Source: a virus (lineage: Duplodnaviria; Caudoviricetes). Taken from it: a DNA stretch of 54,673 nt. Shown here piece after piece: positions 4,187 through 18,516 of the stretch. Below the pieces are notes generated by a model. The model did no database searches. It was not told the origin of the DNA and worked only from the letters and a program-made list of their open reading frames with translations. Numbering within the stretch: the stretch's first letter is position 1; every line of letters starts with the position of its first letter. The translations under genes were made by a program, and so were the position numbers. Where the stretch lies: positions 1 to 54,673 of IMG/VR virus record IMGVR_UViG_3300009026_000012; one strand, 5' to 3'.

Positions 4187-4192
4187 GTATGG

Positions 4193-4221: not shown

Positions 4222-4228
4222 TCCGGCA

Positions 4229-4618: not shown

Positions 4619-4626
4619 ACCTTCTC

Positions 4627-5163: not shown

Positions 5164-5164
5164 C

Positions 5165-5395
5165 TTAGGGGCTCCCTTTAATTTGTCGGGGGTTAACGCG
5201 CCGACACGCTCGCCAGATATCCCGACAGGCTTGGCATGTTATTTGCTTATGTGTGGTCGGCACGGTGGACATTCCGAGTTTTTCATCCCCACCATCCATC
5301 CCGCATACCGTGTCGTATGTACCCCGGTGCGTAGCGATGTGGTTGTCGAGCTCTCCGTCGGCCACAATGGCTATGGTTGATCTAGGCATGTTCAT
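5165..5395 (-). CDS. Hypothetical protein, possibly Zn-binding
   Basis: H...CG...TCQAC pattern; ATGA overlap. Confidence 0.6.
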   Translation of the reverse strand: MNMPRSTIAIVADGELDNHIATHRGTYDTVCGMDGGDEKLGMSTVPTTHKQITCQACRDIWRACRRVNPRQIKGSP

Positions 5396-5649
5396 CCCTC
5401 GCTGCTTTTCTTAGCCGGGCAAAAGTGCAACCCCGCGCTACGGCCAAACAAGGCACCGCACTGGCACCGCTTACCACCCCCAGAAAGGGACCATACGTAT
5501 GCTTTTACCTCCTCCATGCAGAAAGGGCAGTCGAACCAGATAACCCGGCTAGAGGGAGGCTCTACGGCGTCGCTGTGCACGGTGTAAAGCCGGCGCTCCA
5601 CCTTGTCGGGGTTTTGCGCGGCATACTCAAAGCTCATTTTTTTGGGCAT
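5392..5649 (-). CDS. Zn-ribbon hypothetical protein
   Basis: CPFC...CQCG; GAGGAGG RBS. Confidence 0.65.
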   Translation of the reverse strand: MPKKMSFEYAAQNPDKVERRLYTVHSDAVEPPSSRVIWFDCPFCMEEVKAYVWSLSGGGKRCQCGALFGRSAGLHFCPAKKSSEG

Positions 5650-5957
5650 ACGTCCTCCTCTAAAGCATCGCCCACACGGCGGTGGAGCTCAGCCTTCCAT
5701 TTTCGGCTAATATGTTCCGCCACGGCCACGGGGGTGGGGGTTCCGCCGTTTAGGTCTGCGTAGTCTTGGCTAGAAAGGTTCTCTAGTAGCTTGTAGCTCC
5801 CTCTACTACTCCGGAAAAGCCCCACCAACATGAGCCCCGGCAAGTTAGACGGGGAGGTTAGGCCCAGTTGCCCGTACCCCATATTTTTGCTCACTCGCGC
5901 GAGGATCTCCCCCGCGTTGCGGTAGTCCTCGTATCCTCCTGTTATTGTTCTGGGCAT
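5634..5957 (-). CDS. Hypothetical protein
   Basis: Start moved to MPRTITGG with GGGAGG RBS. Confidence 0.55.
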   Translation of the reverse strand: MPRTITGGYEDYRNAGEILARVSKNMGYGQLGLTSPSNLPGLMLVGLFRSSRGSYKLLENLSSQDYADLNGGTPTPVAVAEHISRKWKAELHRRVGDALEEDVCPKK

Positions 5958-6235
5958 ACGTAAGCCTCCCACAGGATGGTGCAAACGACCCTCCAAAAAC
6001 TTAGCGTTATAGTTATGGGGCGCGTTGGCCCCTCCCCTATGCCTATCCAGCCGGCGCGCTTCCATTCCTCCAAGAGCGAGCCCTCCCTCCGGCTCACCAT
6101 GGAGCGGTCTAGCTGTTTGCTGTTTAACATGAGGTGTTGCACGTAAGGCATGAGCCGAAGCTCTTCGAGGGTTATCTCGCGCCCCAGCTTGGCGACGGCG
6201 ATAGCTTGTATCTCTTTCGTTAACTGTCCGCGCAT
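5942..6235 (-). CDS. Hypothetical protein
   Basis: Start moved to MRGQLTK with GGAGGT RBS. Confidence 0.65.
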   Translation of the reverse strand: MRGQLTKEIQAIAVAKLGREITLEELRLMPYVQHLMLNSKQLDRSMVSRREGSLLEEWKRAGWIGIGEGPTRPITITLSFWRVVCTILWEAYVCPEQ

Positions 6236-6281
6236 GGCGCACCTCCGATAAAAAAGTCCCCCGTCCGTGGGGGTGTGAGTG

Positions 6282-6461
6282 TTATATGTAGTTGCGCTTG
6301 GAGCGTAGAGAGAGGTGATTCTCCCGGGCCTCAATCGTCGAGCGGGTAGGGCTGCGCCCAGCTATGCGCTCGGGGTAACACCCTTGTAGGATGTTTTGGC
6401 GGTTAACTTCGGCGGCGCGTTGGCCCAGTCTGTAGGGTTTATTTTTCTTGGACTTGCTCAT
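6282..6461 (-). CDS. Small basic hypothetical protein
   Basis: MSKSKKNK start with AGGAGGT RBS. Confidence 0.55.
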   Translation of the reverse strand: MSKSKKNKPYRLGQRAAEVNRQNILQGCYPERIAGRSPTRSTIEARENHLSLRSKRNYI

Positions 6462-6473
6462 GGTGTACACCTC

Positions 6474-6653
6474 CTAGGTGTGGTTGGGTTCGGCAATCGA
6501 GAAGCGTATCTCCGGGACCAAGTCCCCCGCCTCGTTCCGGACGTAAGTAGCGCTAATTTCGCGGATGGCTTCATGTGTGCGCCAATCTAGGCCCTCTAGG
6601 GCAGTTTTAACCCCTAAGCCTAAGTCTAACGCGGTCTCTTTATTAACTCCCAT
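6474..6653 (-). CDS. Hypothetical protein (first gene after promoter module 1)
   Basis: ATG follows the repeat-encoded GGGAGCACGACA. Confidence 0.65.
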   Translation of the reverse strand: MGVNKETALDLGLGVKTALEGLDWRTHEAIREISATYVRNEAGDLVPEIRFSIAEPNHT

Positions 6654-6741
6654 TGTCGTGCTCCCGTTTCGTTGTTGTTGGGAGTATTGTACTCTTGTTG
6701 GCGGTAGTGTCAACAAGTATTTTACAATCTTTTTTGATCGG
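6654..6741 (-). promoter_or_regulatory. Repeated promoter/leader/RBS module, copy 1
   Basis: A-rich upstream tract, TTGACA (6713-6708), 16 bp, TACAAT (6691-6686), leader CAACAACAACGAAACGGGAG. Confidence 0.85.
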
Positions 6742-7210
6742 TATATATGCCCGGGTCGTACATGTCGAGGGTGCCGAGCTTCGTCGCGGAAGGCTCGAAC
6801 GTCTTCGGCACTCCGTTCTCTAGCATGTAGAAGATACGCTTAGCGGCGCCCCTTGGGGTGTTGTCCTCCTCCGCCCATCGCGACTCAAAACACCACTCCC
6901 ACACGGGCTCGTACACCCTAGCTCCGAAAAACACCTTGCTGTACCGGTCCCACGTGAGCCCGTCGAGGTCGTCCCCGTTACCTATGCCCGCTGCAGGGCC
7001 ATGCCCTAGCGCACACGCCACGGTGCCGCAACCCTCATACCCGTCGTTGTAGGCGGAAAGCACCCCGTTTGCCGTGCTGTTACCTTGGGCGAAATAGTAC
7101 TCCATATCGAAGTGGGTATAGTCCTCGGGCAAGTCCCATAAGTAGCGGGCTAGCTTTAAAAGGTTCTCTTTGTGCGTGTCGGTTAGCTGTAGCTCGAACT
7201 TAGTAGACAT
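6722..7210 (-). CDS. CGTVAC-motif protein, paralog 1
   Basis: Shares ENLLKLARYLWDLPE, FDME, GCGTVACAxGHGPAAG and DNTPRGAAKRIFYMLE with 10810..11229 and 17854..18264. Confidence 0.85.
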   Translation of the reverse strand: MSTKFELQLTDTHKENLLKLARYLWDLPEDYTHFDMEYYFAQGNSTANGVLSAYNDGYEGCGTVACALGHGPAAGIGNGDDLDGLTWDRYSKVFFGARVYEPVWEWCFESRWAEEDNTPRGAAKRIFYMLENGVPKTFEPSATKLGTLDMYDPGIYTDQKRL

Positions 7211-7592
7211 CGACGGCCTCCAGTGTTTTGGTTTTCATGTTAAAGCGGCACGTATATTGCACGGACTCCCAGCGCCCGCCCAACGTCTTGAACTCTACGT
7301 CCCCCCCACCGATAAAAAATGCCCCCTTAGCCCAGCTCACCTCTCTAACGAAAGTAGGCTCTAGTGCGCCCACCCACCGCGCGCCGAATTTTGCGCGGGC
7401 TTCGACTTGGACGAAGCACTCGCGGTCGGCACCCGAGGAGGTGAAGGCCTCCAGAACGTGCACCGGGTGGAGCTCGTCTACCAATGTGGCCGAACCTGTC
7501 ACCCCCGAAAGGGCGAGCACTACCACTAAGCCGAGGAGGCAGCACGGACCGGCAAAATCGCCTAGGCCCATAAATCTATATTTAGCTATCAT
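7200..7592 (-). CDS. Hypothetical protein with N-terminal hydrophobic segment
   Basis: LLGLVVVLALSG segment; overlaps neighbours. Confidence 0.55.
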   Translation of the reverse strand: MIAKYRFMGLGDFAGPCCLLGLVVVLALSGVTGSATLVDELHPVHVLEAFTSSGADRECFVQVEARAKFGARWVGALEPTFVREVSWAKGAFFIGGGDVEFKTLGGRWESVQYTCRFNMKTKTLEAVDVY

Positions 7593-7821
7593 TGGTAAGT
7601 ACCGTGTTGTCTGTTATGCGTGTGATTAGCGGGGGGGCTTCGGCCAAACGTACGCGCTTAGGAGCCCCGTAGGCCTCCGCCGCTGCTTCGTTACGGATTG
7701 CGAGGCATTCCATTAGATTGCCCGTCATAACGCACCGAGCGCCGTCGTAGACGCCGTGCGAGCAACTAGGCCCGCGCATTTCTTCGACGGGCAGGGGTCG
7801 TACTTCGTATAGGTATCTCAT
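7582..7821 (-). CDS. Hypothetical protein
   Basis: 79-aa ORF, GGAGG RBS, ATGA overlap. Confidence 0.6.
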   Translation of the reverse strand: MRYLYEVRPLPVEEMRGPSCSHGVYDGARCVMTGNLMECLAIRNEAAAEAYGAPKRVRLAEAPPLITRITDNTVLTNDS

Positions 7822-8069
7822 TGGCCCACCTCCACTAGGTTGAAGTCTGACTCATCGAAACACACTAAGGTGGGCGCGCCCGTTGTCGTGTGGTCCCCCG
7901 AGATCTCATATAAGTAGGTAAACTCGGCGGCGCCTTTGTGCGTGACTCGGGCCTTTGCGGCCACATCGTTGGCCCACGCTTTTACGCGGTGCGGCTCTTT
8001 AAGGTGCCGCCCCATGTAGTCCTCTAGGCTACGCACCCCGCTAGGGCTCAAACCTTGTATTTGTTTCAT
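7818..8069 (-). CDS. Hypothetical protein
   Basis: Start moved to MKQIQG with GGAG RBS. Confidence 0.55.
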   Translation of the reverse strand: MKQIQGLSPSGVRSLEDYMGRHLKEPHRVKAWANDVAAKARVTHKGAAEFTYLYEISGDHTTTGAPTLVCFDESDFNLVEVGQ

Positions 8070-8226
8070 CGTTTGCGTTCTCCGTTTTCTTGTTTTGATG
8101 TTCGGCCACAGCGGCGAGAAATAGGTCCGCGTGGAGCTCTTCGCGGAACCCGGCGACGACTCGGCCATCTTCGTAGATGAACCAGCCCCCGCCCCCGCGC
8201 TGCTTATTTAAAGAACGCGCCACCAT
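8041..8226 (-). CDS. Hypothetical protein
   Basis: 61-aa ORF in packed operon. Confidence 0.5.
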   Translation of the reverse strand: MVARSLNKQRGGGGWFIYEDGRVVAGFREELHADLFLAAVAEHQNKKTENANDETNTRFEP

Positions 8227-8375
8227 CCTGCGCGCTCCCCGATAAGTACGTCGCTAGGCTTAACCAAAAGGCCTATGTTTTCCACGGCCTCCTCAAAGGA
8301 CTGGAGTAGCTCTATGTCGAACACTGCTAGCTCGCCGGTGTTTTCGGTTGGTACTGTTATCGTCATAGTTGTCAT
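8208..8375 (-). CDS. Small hypothetical protein (55 aa; first gene after module 2)
   Basis: Hand translation MTTMTITVPTENTGELAVFDIELLQSFEEAVENIGLLVKPSDVLIGERAGWWRVL after the repeat RBS. Confidence 0.6.
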   Translation of the reverse strand: MTTMTITVPTENTGELAVFDIELLQSFEEAVENIGLLVKPSDVLIGERAGWWRVL

Positions 8376-8380
8376 TTTTT

Positions 8381-8821
8381 CTACTCCCGTTTCGTTGTTG
8401 TTGGAGCTATTATACCGTTGTTGGCGGGAGTGTCAACAAGTATTTTACAATCTTTTTTGATTGCGCCCACCCCCAATATGGCCGCCACTTCTCGGAGCTG
8501 CTCTACGCTAGGCGTGTCTTTTCGGTTGCCCGGCCACGAGTGTATGTACAGTTTAGTGCGCACGGCGTTGGCGATGAGCTTCGACTCTTCGTACTCTTGG
8601 TAGTCTTGCTCGTTCGCAAAAATCTGGTAGTTTGACGAGTAGCCCCACTTAGGCACCCACGAGGATATGTGCACCGGCACCGGCTCGGCACCTATACCGC
8701 GCTGCAGGTAAAAAAACTTAGTCCCTACTTTGTGTACTTCTATCGGCCCCGTAATGTGCTCGAATCCGGGCGCCCCGACGATGTAGAGGGTCTCCCCTTC
8801 TTTCGGCCTGTATGGTCTCAT
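8381..8821 (-). CDS. Hypothetical protein whose C-terminus reads through module 2
   Basis: 146-aa ORF; last ~26 codons are the promoter repeat. Confidence 0.6.
   Translation of the reverse strand: MRPYRPKEGETLYIVGAPGFEHITGPIEVHKVGTKFFYLQRGIGAEPVPVHISSWVPKWGYSSNYQIFANEQDYQEYEESKLIANAVRTKLYIHSWPGNRKDTPSVEQLREVAAILGVGAIKKDCKILVDTPANNGIIAPTTTKRE
8384..8461 (-). promoter_or_regulatory. Repeated promoter/leader/RBS module, copy 2
   Basis: TTGACA (8436-8431), 16 bp, TATAAT (8414-8409), same leader. Confidence 0.85.
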
Positions 8822-8973
8822 TGGTAAAGCCCTCTTATAAGATCCGCGTACACCCGGCCTCTAGGCCTAAAAGCGCGCTGTCTGCGGGTCGTGCGTGTTA
8901 TGTCGTTTTGTCGGGGGGTCATGGCCGCGTGCTGCTTTCGGTACGCTTTGCGCAGCTCTAGTACGTCATTCAT
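8818..8973 (-). CDS. Small basic hypothetical protein (51 aa)
   Basis: Hand translation MNDVLELRKAYRK...RGLYQ; overlaps both neighbours. Confidence 0.5.
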   Translation of the reverse strand: MNDVLELRKAYRKQHAAMTPRQNDITRTTRRQRAFRPRGRVYADLIRGLYQ

Positions 8974-9223
8974 GGCTATAAACTCCTTCGATTGTTATCG
9001 GGCGGGCTTGTGAAAGTCTGAGGCTCACCTCGTCGTGTACGGCGACCACCTCGACGGAGTACCCGTAGGGCAGACGAAGCCCGGCGAGCGCGTCCCCCAT
9101 TTCGGCCATTGCCCGGCGCGTTCCCCCGAGGCGTTGCGCTATTAGGGCGTAGCACTCCCGTGCCTCCCGTCGGCAATTTATACAGCCGCCGTACAGTATC
9201 TTGCCGTGGTGACATGTAGGCAT
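8966..9223 (-). CDS. Hypothetical protein
   Basis: 85-aa ORF, TAATG coupling, N-terminal CHH/CINC. Confidence 0.55.
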   Translation of the reverse strand: MPTCHHGKILYGGCINCRREARECYALIAQRLGGTRRAMAEMGDALAGLRLPYGYSVEVVAVHDEVSLRLSQARPITIEGVYSHE

Positions 9224-10002
9224 TAGCTCCCCCCCGCGTGTGCGGCTAAGTGGAGAAGGGCGTCTTTATATTCCTTCCATAGTTCAAGCGCGCCGTCGTC
9301 CATTTCGGCGATAACTTCGTCGGAGAGAGTCCGCCATTGGTCGAGGGTATGAACTTGGCACCCTACGCGCATCGTGTTAGGGGTGATCGTTACTGTCCAC
9401 GGAAAGCCCGTTAGAACTACTGGATTTTTTTCTAAAACGTCCCCGCTGACCTGCGCGGTGCCGTAGACCCACGCGTCCCCGCTGACCCGCGCGTCCCCGC
9501 AGACCTGCGCGTTACCGTAGACCCGCGCGTTACCGTAGACCTGCGCGTCCCCGCTGACCTGCGCGTCCCCGCTGACCCGCGCGTCCCCGCAGACCTGCGC
9601 GTTACCGTAGACCCGCGCGTTACCGTAGACCTGCGCGGTGCCGTAGACCTGCGCGTCCCCGCAGACCCACGCGTCCCCGCGAACCCACGCGTCCCCGCTG
9701 ACCTGCGCGTCCCCGTAGACCCGCGCGGTGCCGTAGACCTGCGCGTCCCCGCTGACCTGCGCGTCCCCGCTGACCTGCGCGTCCCCGCTGACCTGCGCGC
9801 CCCCGCTGACCTGCGCGCCCCCGCTGACCTGCGCGTTACCGTAGACCCACGCGTTACCGTAATGGGTCAGGTTCTCCATAGACTCCACCCATCCGCCTAA
9901 CTCGCCTTCTTTCACGTTAGCGAAGTCGATGCACGCGCGAATTCGGTGCAGGATCTTGCCAACGTGCTCTTTGGTTTCTTCTGTTAGCTCATACTTTTGC
10001 AT
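9223..10002 (-). CDS. Hexapeptide-repeat (left-handed beta-helix-like) protein
   Basis: MQKYELT...GELGGWVE N-terminus, >20 AxVxG[DN] repeats, C-terminal RVGCQVH domain; start moved to 10002. Confidence 0.8.
   Translation of the reverse strand: MQKYELTEETKEHVGKILHRIRACIDFANVKEGELGGWVESMENLTHYGNAWVYGNAQVSGGAQVSGGAQVSGDAQVSGDAQVSGDAQVYGTARVYGDAQVSGDAWVRGDAWVCGDAQVYGTAQVYGNARVYGNAQVCGDARVSGDAQVSGDAQVYGNARVYGNAQVCGDARVSGDAWVYGTAQVSGDVLEKNPVVLTGFPWTVTITPNTMRVGCQVHTLDQWRTLSDEVIAEMDDGALELWKEYKDALLHLAAHAGGS
9440..9860. repeat. Degenerate 18-bp coding tandem repeats
   Basis: Units such as gacctgcgcgtccccgct; boundaries approximate. Confidence 0.85.
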
Positions 10003-10172
10003 TAGCTCCCCCCCAGTATTGCTATTAAAAAACTCAATAAGGCGGCATAGCACGCCACAACAACGAGCGCAAACACCCCTAGCGCCCCCCTCTTGCTCAG
10101 CCCTCGCACCCGGCTGCCTGTGCCCAGCGTGAGAGCGGCGAACAGTACCAGCACCCCCACCACGGCTAACAT
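10002..10172 (-). CDS. Small two-TM membrane protein (56 aa)
   Basis: Hand translation MLAVVGVLVLFAALTLGTGSRVRGLSKRGALGVFALVVVACYAALLSFLIAILGGS; TAATG coupling. Confidence 0.55.
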   Translation of the reverse strand: MLAVVGVLVLFAALTLGTGSRVRGLSKRGALGVFALVVVACYAALLSFLIAILGGS

Positions 10173-10390
10173 GAGTTCACCAAGCGGATAGCTTCGCCCG
10201 GCCCTAACACGTGGCCGGTCTCCTCTTCAAAGGCGTGGACCACGGCGAAAAGGGCCGCCGGGCTTTGGTCGTCCAACGGTACGAAGGCCGTCACTTTTTG
10301 GGATATCTTAATCCGTAGGGGGTCGGTTAGCCGGACCTTCGCGCGCGCCTCCACTTTTCCCAAAAAGCAGAGCACTTGGTAGGTGTTCAT
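10166..10390 (-). CDS. Hypothetical protein
   Basis: 74-aa ORF, ATGA overlap. Confidence 0.55.
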   Translation of the reverse strand: MNTYQVLCFLGKVEARAKVRLTDPLRIKISQKVTAFVPLDDQSPAALFAVVHAFEEETGHVLGPGEAIRLVNSC

Positions 10391-10569
10391 GTTGCTAGCT
10401 GAGCGCGAGCCCAGCGGTGTGCGGCGGGTTTACGGGCGAACTTCCGAACGCCTAGGACCTGCTCCTCGCCACTACTGTGCAATCGCACAAAGGTGGCACG
10501 GATCTTGCCGTCGTTTTTGGATATCTTAACCACCTTAGTTTGAGTGGCTTTTCTTAATACTTCCCACAT
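10387..10569 (-). CDS. Small basic protein resembling 18277..18450
   Basis: Shared IS.N.DG....VR....GEE.V....F....AA pattern. Confidence 0.6.
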   Translation of the reverse strand: MWEVLRKATQTKVVKISKNDGKIRATFVRLHSSGEEQVLGVRKFARKPAAHRWARAQLAT

Positions 10570-10571
10570 GG

Positions 10572-10739
10572 CTACGCTCTCCAGAGATCCGCCTCGGCCT
10601 TACATTGGCCTAGCTTCTCTTCGTCGCCAATGCTGTGGAAGTGCTCCAAGCGTTGGCATAGGTTAAAAATTGCTTTTTGTTCGCGGGCGGTTTTAGACGC
10701 CGCTAAGGTTCTGAGTTCCGCGATTACTGAATATGGCAT
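10572..10739 (-). CDS. Hypothetical protein (first gene after module 3)
   Basis: MPYSVIAE start after the repeat RBS. Confidence 0.65.
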   Translation of the reverse strand: MPYSVIAELRTLAASKTAREQKAIFNLCQRLEHFHSIGDEEKLGQCKAEADLWRA

Positions 10740-10748
10740 TTTTTTCTG

Positions 10749-10829
10749 CTCCCGTTTCGTTGTTGTTGAGCTCATTGTACTATTGTTGGCGGGAGTGTCA
10801 ACAACTATTTTACAATCTTTTTTGATCGG
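10749..10829 (-). promoter_or_regulatory. Repeated promoter/leader/RBS module, copy 3
   Basis: TTGACA (10801-10796), 16 bp, TACAAT (10779-10774). Confidence 0.85.
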
Positions 10830-11229
10830 CATAAATATCTGGGGTCCAGCCGCTCCGTGGGGACCTGCGCTCCAGCATGTAGAAGATACGCTTAGCGGCA
10901 CCCCTTGGGGTGTTGTCTTTCTGGCGCCAAGTATCCGAAAAGCACCAAAGCCATTCAGTGGAGTGCCCCGGAAGGCCGAAAGCCTCTAGGGAGTACGAAT
11001 ACCACCCGGCCACGTTGTCGGATGGCTTAACCCCCGCAGCAGGGCCGTGGCCCAGCGCACACGCTACGGTGCCACAGCCCCCGGGTCTTTGTGCGTTTTG
11101 CGGGGGGCAGTGCCCTATAGGGTCCGGTCCATCGAAAAAGGTCTCCATATCGAAGTGGGTATAGTCCTCGGGCAAGTCCCACAAATAGCGGGCTAGCTTT
11201 AAAAGGTTCTCTCTGTGCTTTGCTTCCAT
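10810..11229 (-). CDS. CGTVAC-motif protein, paralog 2
   Basis: Same conserved blocks as paralogs 1 and 3; AGGAG RBS. Confidence 0.85.
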   Translation of the reverse strand: MEAKHRENLLKLARYLWDLPEDYTHFDMETFFDGPDPIGHCPPQNAQRPGGCGTVACALGHGPAAGVKPSDNVAGWYSYSLEAFGLPGHSTEWLWCFSDTWRQKDNTPRGAAKRIFYMLERRSPRSGWTPDIYADQKRL

Positions 11230-11247
11230 TGTCTTGCTCCTGTTTCG

Positions 11248-11463
11248 TTAGTAGCGCACCATAGGCGCGCCTAAAAAGTTGACGATATCCCCGCGCACTT
11301 TCACCCGTAGGAGCCCGCGCATACGGAGCCGCTGCAGTTCGCGCAACGCTTGCCCCTTCGCAGCCCGCTCTATGAGAGTGTGGCCGGTATCCTCAATCGG
11401 TTGGAACGCCCGTTCCACTTTACGCGATATAGGCCCCCCGAATTTTAGCTCCTCGTTTATCAT
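11248..11463 (-). CDS. Hypothetical protein
   Basis: Start moved to MINEELK; ATGA overlap. Confidence 0.5.
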   Translation of the reverse strand: MINEELKFGGPISRKVERAFQPIEDTGHTLIERAAKGQALRELQRLRMRGLLRVKVRGDIVNFLGAPMVRY

Positions 11464-11726
11464 GCTGGGCCCCCCGCCATCAGCCACAGTTGTGTTAAAA
11501 GCTCGTTTGCGGGTTGCCGCTGCATACTGCGGAACACCCGCCCGTCCAGCCTCCACACGATACTCTCGTCGCGGGTGTCCGCGCTTCTAGCTCCCGGCGG
11601 CGTGTTGTCGGGGTGGAGCGCTCGGCTCCAGAAAAGCGCCTCGCATTTTCGGACGAAAGCCGCCGCCCTACTGGACCCCGGGGATATGCCCTCGATACGG
11701 ATCTCTAGGTCTCTTAAGTGTGCCAT
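11460..11726 (-). CDS. Hypothetical protein
   Basis: 88-aa ORF, GGGAGG RBS. Confidence 0.6.
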   Translation of the reverse strand: MAHLRDLEIRIEGISPGSSRAAAFVRKCEALFWSRALHPDNTPPGARSADTRDESIVWRLDGRVFRSMQRQPANELLTQLWLMAGGPA

Positions 11727-11747
11727 TGTCCCCCTCCCGGGGCGCGA

Positions 11748-11996
11748 CTAGCGCGCTATTGCTTGGGCTAAGTATTTAAAAAAGTGCATGACGTCCCCGT
11801 TCTTAAAATCAATCATTACTAGGGTTTTTCTGATCTGGTCTTGTTCGTGCTTTGGAGCTATAAGGATGTGCTCTACGACCGTTTCTAGTGTCATAAAATT
11901 AGTCCCGCTAGGGCCTTCTACGATGATCTCCGAGCCCATGCTTATGCCGTCCTTCTCTTCGATCAAGTTATTTAGGTATGTAGAAATGTTGCTCAT
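11748..11996 (-). CDS. Hypothetical protein (first gene after module 4)
   Basis: MSNISTYL start after the repeat RBS. Confidence 0.7.
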   Translation of the reverse strand: MSNISTYLNNLIEEKDGISMGSEIIVEGPSGTNFMTLETVVEHILIAPKHEQDQIRKTLVMIDFKNGDVMHFFKYLAQAIAR

Positions 11997-12068
11997 TGTC
12001 GTGCTCCCGTTTCGTTGTTGTTGAGCCCATTGTACTCTTGTTGGCGGTAGTGTCAACAACTATTTTAC
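11997..12068 (-). promoter_or_regulatory. Repeated promoter/leader/RBS module, copy 4
   Basis: TTGACA (12056-12051), 16 bp, TACAAT (12034-12029). Confidence 0.85.
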
Positions 12069-12424
12069 TCTGGCACGTAAAGTTTGTCGTGCGGCGGGAG
12101 TAGGAGCTCTCCGTTCTCGTCAACCTCAATAAGGAACAGCTGGTCCTTTTCGGTAAACGCCGCACGTATTCGGAGGATCTTTTCGTGTGTCGTGGGGGTG
12201 AAGCTAAATACTCTTAGCGTCTTGGTCTCGCGAAAACGGCCGCCCCCTATGTGCTCTAGCATGTATATGCCTAGAGTATACCGACGGGCCTCCATTTTCG
12301 CTAAGTCCGCCTTTAGTGCTGCGATCTCAGCGAGTAGGGCCGTGGTCTCCCGGTCGTGTCTTTCTATCATTTTGAAAAGTTCCGCTTCGTTCTCTTTCAC
12401 TAACTTAACTATTTGGTCTTGCAT
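12065..12424 (-). CDS. Hypothetical protein with N-terminal coiled coil (single-gene cassette between modules 5 and 4)
   Basis: MQDQIVKL start after the repeat RBS; its TAA lies within module 4. Confidence 0.7.
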   Translation of the reverse strand: MQDQIVKLVKENEAELFKMIERHDRETTALLAEIAALKADLAKMEARRYTLGIYMLEHIGGGRFRETKTLRVFSFTPTTHEKILRIRAAFTEKDQLFLIEVDENGELLLPPHDKLYVPE

Positions 12425-12431
12425 GGCCTTG

Positions 12432-12497
12432 CTCCCGTTTCGTTGTTGTTGAGTTAATTGTACTCTTGTTGGCGGGGGTGTCAACAAGTATTTTACA
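12432..12497 (-). promoter_or_regulatory. Repeated promoter/leader/RBS module, copy 5
   Basis: TTGACA (12484-12479), 16 bp, TACAAT (12462-12457). Confidence 0.85.
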
Positions 12498-12558
12498 GTG
12501 TTAAAGCCGAGCCACAGGCTCCCTCCCCGCAGTTAAGCGGCGTCTAGTGAGTAAGGAC

Positions 12559-12598
12559 ATTGTACTCTTGTTGGCGGTGGTGTCAACAAATATTTTAC
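12559..12598 (-). promoter_or_regulatory. Repeated promoter module, copy 6 (no leader/RBS)
   Basis: TTGACA (12586-12581), 16 bp, TACAAT (12564-12559). Confidence 0.8.
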
Positions 12599-12604
12599 GC
12601 ACAT

Positions 12605-12634
12605 AAAAAAAGCGGCTTTTTAGGGCCGCCTTTT
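12605..12634 (-). terminator. Intrinsic terminator
   Basis: Minus strand AGGCGGC-CCTAAAAA-GCCGCTT followed by T run, just downstream of 12654..13079. Confidence 0.75.
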
Positions 12635-12653
12635 CGTCGTTCCCCGCAGGGTG

Positions 12654-13079
12654 CTACCTGTTGCGCAGGTAGGCCACTATTGCGGTTATGAGCTCCACGA
12701 CGGGAAACCCCCAACGAACGCCGATATAGTAAACCCATGCGCGAGTCTTGCCCATGCCATAGCGGCGAGCGGTGTCTCTCATAATGCGGTCATATATGCG
12801 ACGGTTCGAACGAGGCAAGATACCAAGCTCCATGAGCTGGTATAACCCATCATGGACGCCGGAACCTTCTAGGAACTGGTCGTCCGGGACGTAGTTCGCC
12901 CCGTTCCACGCGTAGCGTGGCGCGAGCATGATTTGCTTAGGCGTTACGTATACGAACTCGTTACCCGCTGCCTCCAGCCCGTGAGGGAGGGGGTTCTCGG
13001 ATAGCGTTACCCGGAAAGGCTTGTCTATAATCAAATAACGGTACTTTCCAGACTGTAGTTGTAAGCGTAAAGGCTGCAT
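12654..13079 (-). CDS. DUF1353-like protein
   Basis: Y.WNGA...S.VHD.LY...D...RA..YY.GVR.G pattern. Confidence 0.6.
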   Translation of the reverse strand: MQPLRLQLQSGKYRYLIIDKPFRVTLSENPLPHGLEAAGNEFVYVTPKQIMLAPRYAWNGANYVPDDQFLEGSGVHDGLYQLMELGILPRSNRRIYDRIMRDTARRYGMGKTRAWVYYIGVRWGFPVVELITAIVAYLRNR

Positions 13080-13080
13080 G

Positions 13081-13875
13081 TTACTGCTCTCGGTTGTGCG
13101 GACTTAACTGCCTAGGGCTTCCCCCGCCATTGTGGGGGGCCATGTGCCCTAAGCGCTCCGCCGCTTCATTGTGCACGAACCCGGCACACGTTGTCCATAG
13201 CTCGTCATTACCCTCTGCACTTTCCACGTACTTGTGGAGCTCCATGCAAATGAAGGCCATGTCCGCTCGATAACGGACACGGTCTTGAGTATTGCGGTCC
13301 TCCAGCTTTTCAACCTCGAACCTCATAGCACGGTCTACCCGGCGCCCGGAGCGGAAAAAATCCCAAGGAATAGCTACGCCTAGCTGCACGGAGTTAGTGC
13401 GGCCTAGGACGTCGTTGTCATCCGTTTGGCCCTGTACGTAAAAAGTGCTTATGCTCTTACTCGCCGAGCCTACCCGGGTCTCGCCAAAGCGAACCCCCCG
13501 GAACTGAGTGCGCTCGATGTGGTTGACTACATTTCTATTTGACGTGTCAACAGTAGCCCCGCGCATAGTGGAAAGATCAATATCATTGTTGACGCTAGGG
13601 GCGTCGATATCAATGCCCACGTTAGCCACAGAATTACCGCTATTATTGACTTCCGAGGCTCCTCCAGCACCCCCCGCGCCACCCAGCGCCGTAGCGTTAG
13701 ACAGTGCTCCCGCACTAGCGTTAGAACTGGAATTTGAATTCGCAATAGCTTGGACATCGATATCGGTCTCCTCTTTAGGCTCCGGGCAATTGCCGTGATG
13801 CTGGCACCCAGTAGCGTGGGTTAGCCCTGCGAAGCAGAGCGCAAAAAGTAAAGTAAAAATGTGTAGCAGTTTCAT
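13081..13875 (-). CDS. Putative exported protein
   Basis: Signal-peptide-like MKLLHIFTLLFALCFAGLTHA; Ser/Asn/Gly-rich linker. Confidence 0.6.
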   Translation of the reverse strand: MKLLHIFTLLFALCFAGLTHATGCQHHGNCPEPKEETDIDVQAIANSNSSSNASAGALSNATALGGAGGAGGASEVNNSGNSVANVGIDIDAPSVNNDIDLSTMRGATVDTSNRNVVNHIERTQFRGVRFGETRVGSASKSISTFYVQGQTDDNDVLGRTNSVQLGVAIPWDFFRSGRRVDRAMRFEVEKLEDRNTQDRVRYRADMAFICMELHKYVESAEGNDELWTTCAGFVHNEAAERLGHMAPHNGGGSPRQLSPHNREQ

Positions 13876-13890
13876 GGTTGTAGTCCTTTT

Positions 13891-14193
13891 TTAGTGTGTT
13901 TTGTTAGCGCGTTGTGCGGTGCATCTTGGGCAGTCGCAAAGCTCCGCGTTGCGTATTAGTTCCGCGAGGAGCTCCCCGGGCGTGGTGGCCTTTTTCTCCG
14001 GCTCTGGAGGTTTGGCCGCTTCGCGTATCTGCTCTGCGGCCTTTTCTAGCGCGAGTACGAGTGCGCGCTCCCCCCCGACGGCTATCACGTCCGCAAGGAG
14101 CCTGCTGTCTATCTGCATTTCTAGCCCTAGCTCTATGCCGCCTCTTTCCACCTTCGAGGAGGTTCGTTTGATCTCTAAAATTGTGTTGCCCAT
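13891..14193 (-). CDS. Hypothetical protein with C-terminal CDCPRC
   Basis: MGNTILE start after CAACAAGAACGGGAG, a degenerate copy of the repeat leader. Confidence 0.65.
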   Translation of the reverse strand: MGNTILEIKRTSSKVERGGIELGLEMQIDSRLLADVIAVGGERALVLALEKAAEQIREAAKPPEPEKKATTPGELLAELIRNAELCDCPRCTAQRANKTH

Positions 14194-14228
14194 GGTGTTG
14201 CTCCCGTTCTTGTTGGTTGGTTGAAAAC

Positions 14229-14768
14229 TTAGTCCCCGCTCCTCACGGCTCTGGGGGTGCTGCGTAACGACACGCCCCGGGCGGCGAACCACCAAGAGAA
14301 AGCCATAACGGCGAGAAATATAATTTGGTGCGTGGTGTATGAGTAGAGCGTCATTAGCTCGGCCACAGGTAGGGATGTGACACCCCCGACGAGTCGGCCT
14401 ATAACGAAGTGTATCCAAAAGGCATACCCTACAGATATCACGGTTAACAGTGGGCGGACCCATGACTTAGCCGCGTCCATTTTGCTACCGCCGTCCGTTA
14501 GGGATGCGACGAAGCCCTCCGCCTCTTTTAGATCAATGGCGACGTTTCCCTCGGCCTCGGCTAGGTCGATGTTTTTATCCACCATCAAAACTTGCTGTTG
14601 ATGCTCTAGCGCTAGCTCTTGGAGATCTAGGGCGCGCATAGCGGCTTTGTGATCGTTGTCTATTTTACGTTGGCGCGAGTCCTGCCACTTTGTGACAATC
14701 CCGCAGGCGCCTCCTATGATGGCCCCAAAGCCACCCGTCCCCATGAGGGACATGATTGTGTCCAGCAT
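14229..14768 (-). CDS. Putative holin (3-TM/GTA-holin-like)
   Basis: N-terminal Gly-rich TM, coiled coil, SWVRPLLT TM and C-terminal WWFxxR motif. Confidence 0.6.
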   Translation of the reverse strand: MLDTIMSLMGTGGFGAIIGGACGIVTKWQDSRQRKIDNDHKAAMRALDLQELALEHQQQVLMVDKNIDLAEAEGNVAIDLKEAEGFVASLTDGGSKMDAAKSWVRPLLTVISVGYAFWIHFVIGRLVGGVTSLPVAELMTLYSYTTHQIIFLAVMAFSWWFAARGVSLRSTPRAVRSGD

Positions 14769-14769
14769 A

Positions 14770-15180
14770 TTAGTGTTCTCCGCTTTGCGTATGTGAGGGG
14801 GCCGCTTGTATGGGCCTGCAGTGCCCACAGCCCGGCGTTTCCATTCTAGGGGTCCAGCACTTAGAGCACACACCGTCGGCATCCCACAGCCCCGGGAATA
14901 GCTCCGGGTTATACGGGAAGCCAGCATCCCCTTCGGAAGCTATTCGGAGCGCCACGCACGCCACCTGAATGGCTTCGGCTCGGACGCTTAGGTCCGTGGC
15001 GCCCTTTTCGGGCTCGTGTTTTTGGTGGAGTAGCGCCTGTGCCAACTCCCCAACCTCCTCGGCTAGGGCGGCTAGCAAGTCCTCGTTTTTTGGGAATTTG
15101 GCCCTAGCTAGGCCCAACTCCCTAAAAAGATCGACCGCCGCTAATTGTGTTAAGCGCTCCAGCTTTTTACTTTCTGGCAT
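14770..15180 (-). CDS. MazG-like nucleotide pyrophosphohydrolase with C-terminal Cys motifs
   Basis: LAEEVGELAQAL...EAIQVACVALRI (ExxE...ExxQ). Confidence 0.65.
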   Translation of the reverse strand: MPESKKLERLTQLAAVDLFRELGLARAKFPKNEDLLAALAEEVGELAQALLHQKHEPEKGATDLSVRAEAIQVACVALRIASEGDAGFPYNPELFPGLWDADGVCSKCWTPRMETPGCGHCRPIQAAPSHTQSGEH

Positions 15181-15181
15181 A

Positions 15182-15586
15182 TCAATGTTCTCCGAAGATA
15201 TTCAACTCGAAAGGCCCGCGAGCGGATAGCTCTCGGAGTTTTACTAGGGCGGACATGCTACTCAAAACCGCCGCCGCGCCCCCCAATTTTCCGGGCCTAA
15301 GCCCTACAAGTATGCACCCCTTAGTATGTTCTACTAGGTTACCGTTGTGGACGAGAATACCCCCCCTATCCGGTACGGCTAAAATGTGCCAAACATCCCG
15401 ATACTTACCGGAAGCGCTGGACTTGATAAAAACCGCTTGGTACTTCCCGGCGGGTATACACGAAACATTGCGCGCGTTGTCTTTCCATGGGCGCTCCAGC
15501 GTGTACAGGACCTCTCCCCCAATGAAGAGGGCCCCACGCGTGTAGCTGGGGCAGCCTGCGTACCTAAGAAGTGACGCTTTTAGCAT
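15182..15586 (-). CDS. DUF5675-family protein, candidate endolysin
   Basis: TLERPW..N....SCIPAG.Y...ILVH.GN....T.GCILVG. Confidence 0.75.
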   Translation of the reverse strand: MLKASLLRYAGCPSYTRGALFIGGEVLYTLERPWKDNARNVSCIPAGKYQAVFIKSSASGKYRDVWHILAVPDRGGILVHNGNLVEHTKGCILVGLRPGKLGGAAAVLSSMSALVKLRELSARGPFELNIFGEH

Positions 15587-15974
15587 CGTCCGCCTCGGCC
15601 TTTTCTGCGGCTTTTAGCGCTTTCCGGTAGTGTGTTAGAGCATTAGATAAGGTCTGCACATCCGCGCGGGTGGCGTCTAAAGCCTCCCGGTTACGCGCCA
15701 CGGCGTCGGAGAGCGCATCCTTAGCCATGTAGGGAGCGTTATACTCCGCCACGTGGTTGCGGATGGCTTCGTCTAGCGCCGCCCTAACGCTGGGGAAGTC
15801 CTTAGACTTGGCGTGTTGGTCCGAATGTAGGACCTCTCCCCGGTGCACTAAAACGCCGCACGCTCCGCCCTCGGCCGCTTGGTCTTTGTGAAAGCGGAAC
15901 GCTTGCTCTAAAAAATCGAGGCGTATGCGGTCCTGCTGTAGTCGGTCTATCTCGTCTTGGCTTAATTGTTGCAT
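15564..15974 (-). CDS. Hypothetical protein
   Basis: 136-aa ORF, AGGAG RBS, DRIRLDFLE motif. Confidence 0.65.
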   Translation of the reverse strand: MQQLSQDEIDRLQQDRIRLDFLEQAFRFHKDQAAEGGACGVLVHRGEVLHSDQHAKSKDFPSVRAALDEAIRNHVAEYNAPYMAKDALSDAVARNREALDATRADVQTLSNALTHYRKALKAAEKAEADDAKSVTS

Positions 15975-15984
15975 GTGTTGGCTC

Positions 15985-16296
15985 CTAAAGCGCTCGCAAT
16001 ACGCGCGCGCGCAGTTTTGGGGGAATCGACTCTATAGCCGGGTGGCGCGTGGCTATTGCCTCGGCTAATACGGCTAGGTTCTCCTCCTCGATAGCGAACT
16101 CGACCACAGCGGTGCGGAGGCCGTCCATGTCGCCGAAATAGTGGTTTATGCTCCCGTTTGCGGCTTTGCTTTTCTCCGCCACGGTATTGCGTTTCATGTT
16201 CTGGAGCCCGACATTCTCCGCTAGTGCTAGCGCGGCCGTGAGTATCTCGCGGCTACGGGCTTCCGGTTTTAACCGTCGTATCTTTCGCTCGGTCAT
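15985..16296 (-). CDS. TetR-like HTH transcriptional regulator
   Basis: REILTAA..LA...G.....R..VA.......GSINHYF; start moved to MTERK. Confidence 0.75.
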   Translation of the reverse strand: MTERKIRRLKPEARSREILTAALALAENVGLQNMKRNTVAEKSKAANGSINHYFGDMDGLRTAVVEFAIEEENLAVLAEAIATRHPAIESIPPKLRARVLRAL

Positions 16297-16772
16297 GTTA
16301 CTTTTTCCCCTGTTGAGAATCTCGCGAGGCCCCCATGGGCCTGCGTTATTTCTAAAAATTTCTTTTGTGCCTTTTCCCGGGGGGTTCCCGTATAGACCCA
16401 CCCTTCCGGCTTAGTTTCCACCGCAGTGAATTGCCCGAAGAGCGCGCCCACCATGCCCGGCGTTACTACTATGGGGGTGATCCCTACTAAGTCGCTAGAC
16501 TTAACCACCGCGTTGACCTCTTTCGAGTCATTCGCGAGACCGTAGCGGATAAAATTGCCCCGGTTATCAGTACAGGCCCCCACATTGTTGCGCCATAATA
16601 CCCCACCATTGGCGGCGGCGTCAAGACGTACCCGCGCCGAGACGGCGGCCTCGCTTTTCCCCCGCGTATCGTGAGGCAGAGGGGGGCGATACCCGGCGCC
16701 GAGAATGTCGCGCAGAGCGTGAAGTGCTACGGGCGCCACGCCATACGCGGCGGCCCAATCCTCAAGAGACAT
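16293..16772 (-). CDS. VRR-NUC domain nuclease
   Basis: LWRNNVG...RYGL...SSDLVG...AVETK...QKKFL (PD-(D/E)xK); start moved to MSLEDW. Confidence 0.8.
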   Translation of the reverse strand: MSLEDWAAAYGVAPVALHALRDILGAGYRPPLPHDTRGKSEAAVSARVRLDAAANGGVLWRNNVGACTDNRGNFIRYGLANDSKEVNAVVKSSDLVGITPIVVTPGMVGALFGQFTAVETKPEGWVYTGTPREKAQKKFLEITQAHGGLARFSTGEKVT

Positions 16773-17325
16773 AAGGCTCCCTTCCCGCCTGCGCGCCAAA
16801 AACACAAGAGCGCTCCCAGTGAGGGTCCCCGGGTTTTTGAGCCCGATAGTACACCCGCTCCGCGTTCCACCCCTCACCCTCGGAACTTGACTCTAGCCAC
16901 GGAAAGCCTGTGCGTTCTGTTTTTAGCCACCCCCAGCCCTTCTCCACGCCGTCAACCGTAACCCGTGGCCGGTGTATGAATAAGGTCCAAGTCTCGGGCA
17001 CGGTTTTCACTATGCGGTGGAAAAGGTTGCTAGGTATCCGGCTAAACCACCGCACTGTCTGCCTCTCGTTAACCACCCCCAGCGCTCCAGAGAGCCCGGT
17101 AGTGACGTCCTGCTCATACTGCCCGGCGAGAACAAAGGAGCACGCGTTCCATGGGTGGTCGTGGGTCTCTTCGTCCCCGTCACACCCTACGAAGCGGTGG
17201 AGGTATACGCGAAACCCGAAGAGCTCGGCCACGAAGTAGCGCTCTAGGTACGGCTCCCCGGGGGAGCGTTGTATCAATCGGCACGGCATCCGGGCGGATA
17301 TTTTAAAAAGTATTTTTCTTAACAT
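16762..17325 (-). CDS. Cupin-like hypothetical protein
   Basis: YLHRF...D....HDHPW...S..L.G.Y...FHRI...WTLF. Confidence 0.6.
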   Translation of the reverse strand: MLRKILFKISARMPCRLIQRSPGEPYLERYFVAELFGFRVYLHRFVGCDGDEETHDHPWNACSFVLAGQYEQDVTTGLSGALGVVNERQTVRWFSRIPSNLFHRIVKTVPETWTLFIHRPRVTVDGVEKGWGWLKTERTGFPWLESSSEGEGWNAERVYYRAQKPGDPHWERSCVFGAQAGREPYVS

Positions 17326-17630
17326 TTTTCTATCTCCTTCAATAGTCGGCGCTCTTCGCGCCGTAGCTCTTTTGAGGCTATAACGGCCTGTTTGGCGTCA
17401 AACCTTACACGGTACAGTAGGCTCTCCAACCGTTGCCGGGTCTCTTCTGGCTCTTCTGGGACCACGGCGTAGAACTCCGCCTCCACGTCGCCGTGGCGCT
17501 CCCAAAGGCGTATCTTTGCGGACGGGTACTTCTCTAGCACTTTCGCTATCACCTCCGCCACATCGGCAAGGGCCGCCCCGTCGTCGAAAACTTCCCCGCC
17601 GGGTATCTCTAATATCTTATTCTGTCTCAT
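17319..17630 (-). CDS. Hypothetical protein
   Basis: 103-aa ORF overlapping neighbours. Confidence 0.6.
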   Translation of the reverse strand: MRQNKILEIPGGEVFDDGAALADVAEVIAKVLEKYPSAKIRLWERHGDVEAEFYAVVPEEPEETRQRLESLLYRVRFDAKQAVIASKELRREERRLLKEIEKC

Positions 17631-17850
17631 CTAGGGACTCCATCAATACGCGCAAATTCTCTGCGAGGAGCTCGGATTCGGTTCGGCACACCGGGTCGAA
17701 CTTCTCGTCCGCATCCCAATAGAACCCACACCGAGGGCACTCGCCCCCGCCTTGCGGCGTTGTTGTTTTTTGGCAAATTGGAGCGCTCGGCTTTCTCTGC
17801 GCCCTGCCTACACCTTGTACGTATACTTGCCCTTCGGTTGCTTTTATCAT
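17617..17850 (-). CDS. Small Cys-containing hypothetical protein
   Basis: C...ECPRCG..WD...C; GAGAGG RBS. Confidence 0.55.
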   Translation of the reverse strand: MIKATEGQVYVQGVGRAQRKPSAPICQKTTTPQGGGECPRCGFYWDADEKFDPVCRTESELLAENLRVLMESLDETE

Positions 17851-17853
17851 GTT

Positions 17854-18264
17854 CTAAAACCTCTCTTGGTTGGCGTAGCTTTCTAGGTTCCATACACTTG
17901 GGGGTGCGCCGTTCTCTAGCATGTAGAAGATACGCTTAGCGGCGCCCCTTGGGGTGTTGTCTTTCCGGCTCCATCGCGCGTCAAAACACCACTCCCACAC
18001 GGGATCGAGCACCCTAGCTCCGAAAGCCTCGGAGGTGTAGTGGCGCCACCCGACGTAGTCGGAGGGCTTAATCCCCGCCGCAGGCCCGTGCCCGACGGCA
18101 CACGCCACCGTGCCGCACCCCGTGGGCAGCTCTCCGCTCCTCGGGGGCCGGAGAGCCCCGGCCACGTTGAAATAGTATTCCATATCAAAATGGGCGTAGT
18201 TCTCTGGCAAGTCCCACAAATAGCGGGCTAGCTTTAAAAGGTTCTCTTTGTGTTTTGCTTCCAT
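17854..18264 (-). CDS. CGTVAC-motif protein, paralog 3
   Basis: Same conserved blocks; RBS GGGAGCACGACAATG identical to the repeat leaders. Confidence 0.85.
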   Translation of the reverse strand: MEAKHKENLLKLARYLWDLPENYAHFDMEYYFNVAGALRPPRSGELPTGCGTVACAVGHGPAAGIKPSDYVGWRHYTSEAFGARVLDPVWEWCFDARWSRKDNTPRGAAKRIFYMLENGAPPSVWNLESYANQERF

Positions 18265-18276
18265 TGTCGTGCTCCC

Positions 18277-18450
18277 CTAGTTAGAAATTTTTGCGATGTA
18301 CGCGGCGGTGGACTTCTCTGCAGCCTTACGGCTCGCAAAATGGCGGCCTTTGTAGCCGTGGGTTACGTTTTCTTCTCCGTCCCGGTCTACACGAACCACT
18401 AGGGCGTAGAAAGTGCCGTCTCTGTTTTCGCTTATTCGTGCTTCGTACAT
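18277..18450 (-). CDS. Small protein (57 aa; first gene after module 7)
   Basis: Hand translation MYEARISENRDGTFYALVVRVDRDGEENVTHGYKGRHFASRKAAEKSTAAYIAKISN. Confidence 0.7.
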   Translation of the reverse strand: MYEARISENRDGTFYALVVRVDRDGEENVTHGYKGRHFASRKAAEKSTAAYIAKISN

Positions 18451-18516
18451 TGTCGTGCTCCCGTTTCGTTGTTGTTGGAGCTATTGTATCATTGTTGGCG
18501 GAGGTGTCAACAACTA
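18451..18516 (-). promoter_or_regulatory. Repeated promoter/leader/RBS module, copy 7
   Basis: TTGACA (18510-18505), 16 bp, TACAAT (18488-18483); -35 contains the helicase stop. Confidence 0.85.

Follow-up and report, generated by a model that had tools for sequence, protein, structure and literature searches.

In the targets of diversity-generating retroelements and in antigenic-variation cassettes, a conserved scaffold carries a few variable segments and sequence is exchanged between copies. In T4-type phages, small genes are flanked by cassettes termed PeSLs, in which the preceding gene stops within an A/T-rich region; a strong promoter of sigma-70 type and a stem-loop of variable position are also present, with a Shine-Dalgarno sequence and then a start codon at the 3′ end (PMC2839356). 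PeSL-to-PeSL recombination shuffles the small genes that are flanked in this way (PMC2839356, PMC4122927). The window considered here, IMG/VR virus record IMGVR_UViG_3300009026_000012 (54,673 bp, the whole stretch of DNA that was analysed), carries three mosaic paralogs of a small phage protein set among repeated promoter cassettes. The paralogs share with the variation systems a conserved scaffold, few variable segments and exchange between copies. However, all three are complete, promoter-served genes, with no silent donors of the antigenic-variation kind, and exchange in this case appears to homogenise the framework instead of varying the loops.

All three paralogs are encoded on the minus strand, at 6722–7210 (copy 1; 162 amino acids, isoelectric point 4.7), 10810–11229 (copy 2; 139 amino acids) and 17854–18264 (copy 3; 136 amino acids). 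Their open reading frames (ORFs) are intact, and a genome search with the copy 3 protein recovers exactly three copies in the 54,673 bp (expectation values (E) of 3.6e-99, 1.5e-56 and 8.8e-53). The copies are alignable end to end, with 57–68 % identity depending on the pair and the span; copy 1 is additionally extended by 8 residues at its N-terminus and has 12 residues inserted C-terminally. On the nucleotide level (minus strand throughout), the longest exact runs are 53 nt for copies 1 and 3 (6813–6865 = 17909–17961, over DNTPRGAAKRIFYMLENG, encoding DNTP...YMLENG), 39 nt for copies 1 and 2 (7100–7138 = 11143–11181, covering WDLPEDYTHFDME) and 42 nt for copies 2 and 3 (11171–11212 = 18206–18247, covering ENLLKLARYLWDL), the three lengths being those reported in the initial annotation of this sequence. 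The segments that it singled out as differing between copies are equally apparent in the alignment: the segment after FDME (V1), the segment after GPAAG (V2) and the segment preceding the C-terminus vary so much, in length as well as in sequence, that the three copies cannot be aligned there. A short extra variable segment, V3, located before WxWCF, is common to copies 1 and 3 and different in copy 2.

The pair of copies that is most alike switches along the gene, as the initial annotation had stated. Among the 140 informative sites, defined over all ungapped columns as those at which exactly two copies agree, 62 runs are found, versus 91.9 ± 5.4 in 20,000 permutations (p=5e-5). For each pair, too, the longest stretch of concordant sites exceeds expectation (copies 1 and 3, p=1e-4; copies 1 and 2, p=8.5e-4; copies 2 and 3, p=0.014), and when only framework and V3 columns are used (62 sites) the runs test gives p=0.0008.

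Silent divergence also varies by region. The synonymous divergence (dS) is 0.90–1.25 in the CGTVAC block for all pairs and 0–0.22 in the DNTP block, where it is 0 for copies 1 and 3; it is 0.17 for copies 1 and 2 in the N-terminal block and 0 for copies 1 and 3 in V3. Near-identity at silent sites had been claimed for the shared blocks in general. This holds for the DNTP block, in which 13 of 15 degenerate invariant codons are the same in all copies, and for the N-terminal block (13 of 19), but not for the CGTVAC block (5 of 15; Fisher p=0.0078 versus the DNTP block). A comparison with 65 genes from other phages shows the copy 3 codon in only 31–38 % of same-residue cells in the three main blocks, and in 46 % in a fourth block of 5 codons. 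This low sharing indicates that the silent-site identity is specific to the window genome and does not reflect a family-wide nucleotide constraint.

The pattern recurs in two other phages that carry the same gene family in tandem. A viral contig of 15,281 bp (L004) contains 7 head-to-tail family genes at 4253–7665, and 23 of the 35 possible triplets give p<=0.001; a viral contig of 132,380 bp (L005) contains a 6-gene head-to-tail array, and 4 of 10 triplets reach the same level (five copies tested). Within both arrays, whole V1 loops and C-terminal tails are common to different pairs of copies. A triplet from a further locus, L009 (p=0.0005), was set aside because its ORFs are spuriously extended over long stretches and give a poor alignment.

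Recombination or gene conversion between the copies, as first proposed from the window alone, is thus supported by the runs tests, by regional dS and by the two arrays. Judged from these comparisons, short-tract gene conversion appears to be the best account of both the pair switching and the regional dS. Because dS is about 1 in the CGTVAC block, it is concluded that the copies are probably old duplicates between which short tracts have been copied more recently. Tracts of a few tens of nt would be copied from paralog to paralog by homologous recombination, and the short-homology exchange is probably performed by the phage's own exonuclease (21037–22206, plus strand, phrog_69) together with its Gp2.5-like single-stranded-DNA-binding and annealing protein (22724–23584, plus strand, phrog_7011). 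Framework-only conversion between paralogs of this kind, repeated in other phages, was not found in the gene-conversion and paralog literature searched. The window may serve as a clean, small example in which framework blocks are homogenised between dispersed paralogs and loops stay distinct, with two arrays that replicate it.

For all pairs, the non-synonymous divergence (dN) of the framework is 0–0.05, versus a dS of 0.17–1.25 (N-terminal, CGTVAC and DNTP blocks). By this measure purifying selection acts strongly on the framework of every copy, so that all three are likely to be functional. In the seven-copy L004 array the pooled ratio of non-synonymous to synonymous polymorphism (pN/pS) is 0.10–0.22 for the framework versus 0.90 for V1, 1.22 for V2 and 0.76 for V3. 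In the variable segments of the window, dN/dS is about 1 or lower and dS is saturated.

The paralogs are closely associated with promoter cassettes. Seven minus-strand sites match the sigma-70 consensus at 11–12 of 12 positions, and all seven sit in a family of 41–97 nt repeats. In each cassette, the A/T-rich stretch is followed by TTGACA, by the inverted repeat (TTGTTGAC...GCCAACAA), by TACAAT and finally by GGGAGCA.GACAATG. The cassette at 6659–6755 contains the stop codon of copy 1, a −35 hexamer TTGACA (6713), the inverted repeat and a −10 hexamer TACAAT (6686), and runs on into the Shine-Dalgarno sequence and ATG of the next gene (6651–6664). The cassette at 10747–10843 contains the 3′ end and stop codon of copy 2, with the −35 at 10801 and the −10 ending at 10774, and that at 18456–18552 (−35 at 18510, −10 ending at 18483) is located upstream of the unit with copy 3, which is the second gene behind the promoter at 18510. 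The remaining members of the repeat family, also on the minus strand, are located at 8382–8478 (12/12 consensus matches), 12002–12098 and 12430–12526, with the seventh present as a 41-nt core at 12558–12598.

That copies 1 and 2 end inside promoter modules had been noted at the outset and is confirmed at the nucleotide level: their stop codons (6722–6724 and 10810–10812) are part of the 97-nt repeat and precede the −35 hexamers by 9 nt, and for copy 1 the last 11 codons and the stop fall within the cassette. Thus the identical last residues and downstream DNA of copies 1 and 2 are attributable to the shared cassette and not to gene-to-gene exchange. The ribosome-binding stretch GGAGCA[AC]GACAATG has 5 occurrences versus 0.05 expected; it is found at three cassette ends (6651, 11994 and 18448) and again at the starts of copy 2 (11227–11240) and copy 3 (18262–18275). 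Since the same stretch marks module ends and copy starts, the paralogs are flanked by pieces of the module, which suggests that the gene could have spread within the genome as a cassette-flanked unit. For the conserved inverted repeat, which covers the −35 hexamer and the spacer, a role as the operator of some regulator is just as conceivable. At 8381–8821 (minus strand), the reading frame of a protein with a phage ProQ C-terminal-like domain (PF24203, residues 1–116) stays open across the entire cassette at 8382–8478, so that promoter DNA codes for its last ~30 residues.

In several respects these cassettes are like PeSLs. They are repeated, they have an upstream stop codon in an A/T-rich stretch followed by a near-consensus sigma-70 promoter (predicted), and they carry an inverted repeat that overlaps both the −35 hexamer and the spacer, a Shine-Dalgarno sequence with its start codon coming last. 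Likewise, they are located among small early-region genes of unknown function, and cassette pieces flank the paralogs, as expected if the cassettes are points of recombination. However, the window phage is a 54.7-kb myovirus and not T4-type, so the cassettes do not lie in the hyperplastic region of a T4-type genome. The stem-loops in the window are short and weak, and a T-run follows the stem on the opposite strand only, not on the transcribed strand. In addition, the exchange that the PeSL papers describe is at the cassettes and not in the form of conversion tracts inside the flanked genes. By analogy the window cassettes may work like PeSL cassettes, although they are not classed as such here; PeSL-like promoter cassettes are in this respect seen outside T4-type phages. 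Plastic early regions, promoter cassettes and shuffled ORFans are already known from T4-type phages; it is the protein family itself that is uncharacterised.

The family is large, unnamed and mostly phage-borne, and consists of small (~140 amino acids) cytoplasmic helical proteins. A profile built from the three copies matched 1176 proteins at E<=0.001 among 8000 candidates scored; the 120 matches listed had no Pfam domain and no name other than ‘hypothetical’. An exhaustive profile search returned 3121 clusters at 50 % identity with E<=0.001, of which 2076 had E<=1e-10. The family alignment (A3) contains 54 sequences, with copies 3, 2 and 1 as rows 1–3, and the profile derived from it recovers copy 2 (P0001) at E 5.9e-47. 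Searches of Pfam, NCBIfam and PADLOC with the three copies gave no family at E<=1, and Pfam searched with the 54 family members at E<=10 gave nine unrelated single-member matches, none of them consistent. The only library family with any signal was phrog_889 (PHROGs v4, unknown function), which matched 15 of the 54 members (best E 7.5e-5). Its match to copy 3 is weak and partial (residues 21–59; E 0.061, or E 0.0011 within the genome), neither of the other two copies gives a match at E<=1, and no paper naming it was found in the literature searched.

Clusters of the family in the ESM Atlas are 81–100 % viral, and the family was located at 59 viral loci. All 50 of the viral records searched carry it, with a single match in 37 of them and two or more in the other 13, namely 7, 6, 4, 3 and 3 matches in five records and 2 in each of another eight (two of the eight being split or partial). 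By comparison, species-representative bacterial genomes yielded no more than 11 loci in a pattern-limited scan, spread across several phyla. Eight cultured-phage records match the family, all annotated as hypothetical. Members identified by tblastn include gp147 and gp149 of Agrobacterium phage OLIVR5, located ~0.8 kb apart, and a protein of Synechococcus phage BUCT-ZZ01, with 41 % and 44 % identity to copy 3 over 82–85 % of its length (E 2e-15 and 5e-20). These are 150-kb phages of other families, and their members too are annotated as hypothetical.

No conserved neighbour is apparent, the best non-family cluster being present at 6 of the 59 loci. Out of 199 selected flanking ORFs, 175 were kept after dropping seven near-duplicate loci, and 150 of these were scanned; 22 had a Pfam match, mostly to early, recombination or regulatory genes, and the annotated neighbours elsewhere include YqaJ, ERF, AAA_24, HTH_39, MazG and NAPRTase. 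The terminase of the window is absent from all five other family-bearing records tested. This absence, together with the lack of a conserved neighbour, indicates that the gene travels between unrelated phages.

What was predicted from three copies, a constant framework that holds a Cys/His core, proves to be a property of the whole family. C50, C55 and H59 (C-x4-C-x3-H; copy 3 numbering) are present together in 220 of 221 aligned members, as is D102, with R111 in 221, Y76 in 218 and N8 in 218; all seven of these residues are invariant in the three window copies. A third cysteine, C93, is present in only 153 of the 221. Framework segments are of fixed length across the family, and V1, V2 and V3 span 9–39, 7–36 and 3–22 residues, respectively. 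Thus, a constant framework with variable loops is found in 221 members, and the variable parts are three discrete segments plus a tail. V1 ends at the first cysteine and V2 starts directly after the Cys/His segment, so that at least the ends of these segments would adjoin the invariant centre. When the window loops were compared with the family sequences gathered here, no convincing counterpart emerged (best E 0.004, with an 8-residue query), and they are therefore not shared cassettes in this sample.

An AlphaFold2 model of copy 3, built with the 54-sequence alignment, is all-helical (mean predicted local distance difference test score (pLDDT) 86, predicted template modelling score (pTM) 0.83). 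Helices are predicted at residues 3–18, 73–81, 88–94, 96–100 and 105–118, with lower confidence over 31–60. The model shows two of the variable segments as loops and the third as a mixture of loop and helix. Fold searches gave no convincing match in the PDB: the best Foldseek match in the PDB had E 1.0, and a sequence profile search of the PDB gave a best E of 0.89. Wide searches with VIA-align returned generic helical matches for the single domain (best Z 3.7, root-mean-square deviation (rmsd) 3.7, 83 residues aligned) and for a two-domain model (best Z 4.5, rmsd 3.3, 80 aligned), and a second look at the VIA-align matches again gave generic helical structures (best Z 2.7). BFVD returned only uncharacterised phage proteins (best E 1.4e-3, TM score 0.60), and the ESM Atlas returned unnamed viral clusters, with no family in the ‘named’ search (best score 0.78). 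As modelled, the protein would thus resemble no solved structure beyond generic helical arrangements, which does not in itself prove a new fold.

Natural two-domain fusions occur in at least four divergent groups, 29–35 % identical to each other (P0005, P0009, P0020, P0123, P0124, P0125 and P0127, as well as L009 4212–4970). In the P0005 group the first domain is degenerate; it retains C-x4-C-x3-H and the Arg and has lost the DNTP motif and the Tyr. A model of the P0005-group fusion, built from 8 sequences, has a pTM of 0.73. A search for longer members produced one protein of 327 amino acids. None of 23 long members has a Pfam match, and the only fusions seen are tandem repeats of the family's own domain. 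The fusions and the two-domain model are hints that the unit works as a dimer.

Two further candidate relationships were pursued and dropped. AhpD and carboxymuconolactone decarboxylase-like proteins have a C-x2-C-x3-H motif and a helical fold; they gave no Pfam match and are absent from the listed fold matches, and the spacing here is C-x4-C-x3-H. A zinc anti-sigma motif likewise found no support in the Pfam and fold searches.

Considered as a whole, the three genes are probably conversion-mosaic paralogs of a metal-centred, dimeric, host-directed early protein whose loops set specificity, a reading that is favoured with some reserve. Cys50, Cys55, His59 and perhaps Asp102 would hold a metal, most likely zinc; the unit would work as a dimer and act early on a host component; and the loops would give each paralog its own specificity. 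Large early-region phage families have often turned out to be host-takeover or counter-defence proteins. As for the role within this reading, a binder or inhibitor of a host or defence factor is put forward tentatively, a small enzyme follows as a doubtful second candidate, and the remainder falls to something else. Should the loops determine which target is bound, the arrays would let phages maintain a set of specificities by means of recombination. A bolder version, in which the protein is a metal-centred dimeric recognition module with its three loops as the target-binding face and with several paralogs per phage, some fused in tandem, that are reshuffled by short-tract conversion at the framework blocks and track variable host targets, e.g. 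defence proteins, is conjectural and improbable. If it were true, new loop combinations as well as homo- and heterodimers could arise quickly, and the system would be a recombination-based counterpart of the diversity-generating systems, carried on promoter cassettes that move it between unrelated phages. In either case, a family of at least 3121 clusters with a confident predicted fold and a near-invariant centre is a well-defined target for structural and functional work.

A number of results weigh against the favoured reading. With strict framework columns only (45 sites) the runs test is weaker (p=0.021), and third positions alone give no mosaic signal (p=0.63, 24 sites); most of the mosaic signal comes from amino-acid-changing differences that are clustered and from regional contrasts in dS that involve few codons. 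The three-copy phage L018 gives no mosaic signal (p=0.19), and from three sequences alone intragenomic conversion cannot be distinguished from exchange with other phages. The Cys motif region and V1 are the least confident part of the model (pLDDT 57–73, with residues 49–52 below 50). The dimer likewise stands on the fusions and a shallow model of 8 sequences. The cassette stem-loops have predicted folding energies of −6.3 to −11.5 kcal/mol, and only 2 of the 7 fold better than all 200 shuffles. Family, fold and defence-library (PADLOC) searches gave no direct pointer to function. The anti-defence binder or ligand sponge that the initial annotation offered as an example would accordingly be conjectural, with no match from PADLOC, Pfam, NCBIfam or the fold searches to support it and no partner gene conserved. 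Finally, the terms ‘hypervariable’ and ‘diversifying’, used in the initial annotation, do not stand in the sense of positive selection: the dN/dS of the variable segments appears to fit relaxed constraint and diversification equally well, and no positive selection is demonstrated.

The selection values bear directly on the alternative that this is an ordinary multigene family without diversification, in which the variable segments are simply unconstrained surface loops and linkers, the paralogs serve redundancy or dosage, and conversion follows passively from the presence of repeats in a phage proficient in recombination. A dN/dS of about 1 or lower in the variable segments of both the window and L004 is in keeping with it, as are the length variation of the same segments in all 221 aligned members, the low pLDDT of V1 and the predominance of single matches among the family-bearing viral records (37 of 50). 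However, all copies keep every invariant residue under strong framework purifying selection, other phages maintain arrays, of up to 7 and 6 members, whose loops differ, and the conversion tracts stop at the loops, leaving these distinct and the framework homogenised; this explanation is accordingly considered unlikely, though it is the main competitor. Somewhat less doubtful is a small enzyme, in which Cys, Cys, His, Asp, Arg, Tyr and Asn form a catalytic (thiol or metal) centre for a small-molecule, nucleic-acid or protein substrate and the loops tune substrate choice or are irrelevant. Seven polar residues near-invariant in 221 members are more than a purely structural metal site needs, and the fusions whose first domain lacks the DNTP motif and Tyr are reminiscent of active/degenerate domain pairs. 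Even so, the profile, sequence and fold searches linked the family to no known enzyme, no cofactor-binding motif was seen, and Cys55 opens a short helix within which His59 follows four residues on. A Cys-His spacing of four suits metal chelation better than a catalytic dyad.

The conversion itself has its own competitors. The mosaic could stem from exchange with co-infecting phages, or from separate acquisition of the copies and shuffling at the cassettes, rather than from conversion within the genome. The presence of the family on unrelated backbones (terminase absent from 5 of 5 records, no conserved neighbour), the cassette pieces that flank the paralogs and the PeSL-mediated swapping documented for T4-type phages (PMC2839356, PMC4122927) all leave room for this. 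Nevertheless, the near-identical blocks are common to copies of the same genome, the best outside homolog is only 49–50 % identical to each window copy, other phages use different codons in those blocks, and a quick tree places the three copies together, with weak support (Shimodaira-Hasegawa-like approximate likelihood ratio test (SH-aLRT) 15; with P0011 83; with P0004 84). An outside origin is thus fairly improbable. An assembly artefact, in which the assembler swapped segments between repeats, has to be considered because the record is a metagenome assembly, and contigs of public runs do break at the shared blocks (e.g. 6680/6836, 7129/7145, 11172/11183, 17932/17938 and 18235), as expected since the repeats are longer than the assembler's word. 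None of the shared exact runs exceeds 53 nt, however, so that reads of usual length would span them, and a within-gene mosaic would need paired mis-joins without rearrangement of the genome. A second run, from another study, has zero differing letters over 10328–11121 and 16617–17938 (parts of copies 2 and 3), and the same mosaicism is seen in the tandem arrays of two other assemblies; an artefact is very unlikely. Programmed diversification by a diversity-generating retroelement or by site-specific cassette switching can be given hardly any credence. All that speaks for it is the broad resemblance, variable segments on a constant scaffold. Neither a reverse transcriptase nor a recombinase is present among the 32 large window ORFs scanned with PHROGs or the 44 scanned with Pfam, a template repeat is likewise absent, and the variable segments differ in length and are unalignable, unlike template/variable repeat pairs. 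Contigs of three marine runs show no joints and no chimeric forms, a weak argument given that contigs drop rare variants and cannot show them. Conversion between resident paralogs of a host-directed early protein thus remains the reading preferred here.

The window is a complete 54.7-kb marine myovirus genome: it is the whole virus record, rated complete by CheckV, and it is present at >=99 % identity in three marine metagenome runs from three studies. A PHROGs scan identified genes for contractile-tail virions (tail sheath, baseplate, tape measure, portal, major head protein and large terminase) as well as for a DNA polymerase, primase and helicase. The terminase has at most 44 % identity to that of any cultured phage, and its best matches listed are in Acinetobacter, Vibrio and Shewanella phages of 42–53 kb, which are not T4-type; a megablast search with 13 kb of the window region gave no match among cultured phages. 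The paralogs are located within a minus-strand block at 4,000–20,141 that contains ~40 small genes, nearly all without a family. From this context the block would be an early, plastic region.

Several other genes of the window deserve mention. In the structural half, four large minus-strand ORFs of 305–732 amino acids (45811–46728, 47090–49288, 49583–51070 and 25936–27990) have no PHROG at E<=1e-5 and no Pfam match at E<=1e-3. Adjoining the terminase, a minus-strand gene at 53734–54561 encodes a 275-amino-acid protein with an FtsK gamma (DNA-recognition) domain (phrog_13700, ‘FtsK/SpoIIIE-like’). Within the early region, on the minus strand, are a cysteine-dioxygenase-like protein (16762–17325, phrog_4786), a small TetR_N-domain protein (15985–16401), a DUF5675 protein (15182–15586) and a 136-amino-acid ORF without a family (14770–15180). 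The minus-strand gene at 9223–10053 encodes a 276-amino-acid protein made of ~20 copies of an 18-nt (6-residue) repeat, with matches to the YdcK beta-solenoid repeat and bactofilin in Pfam and to phrog_7964 and phrog_5070, both of unknown function.

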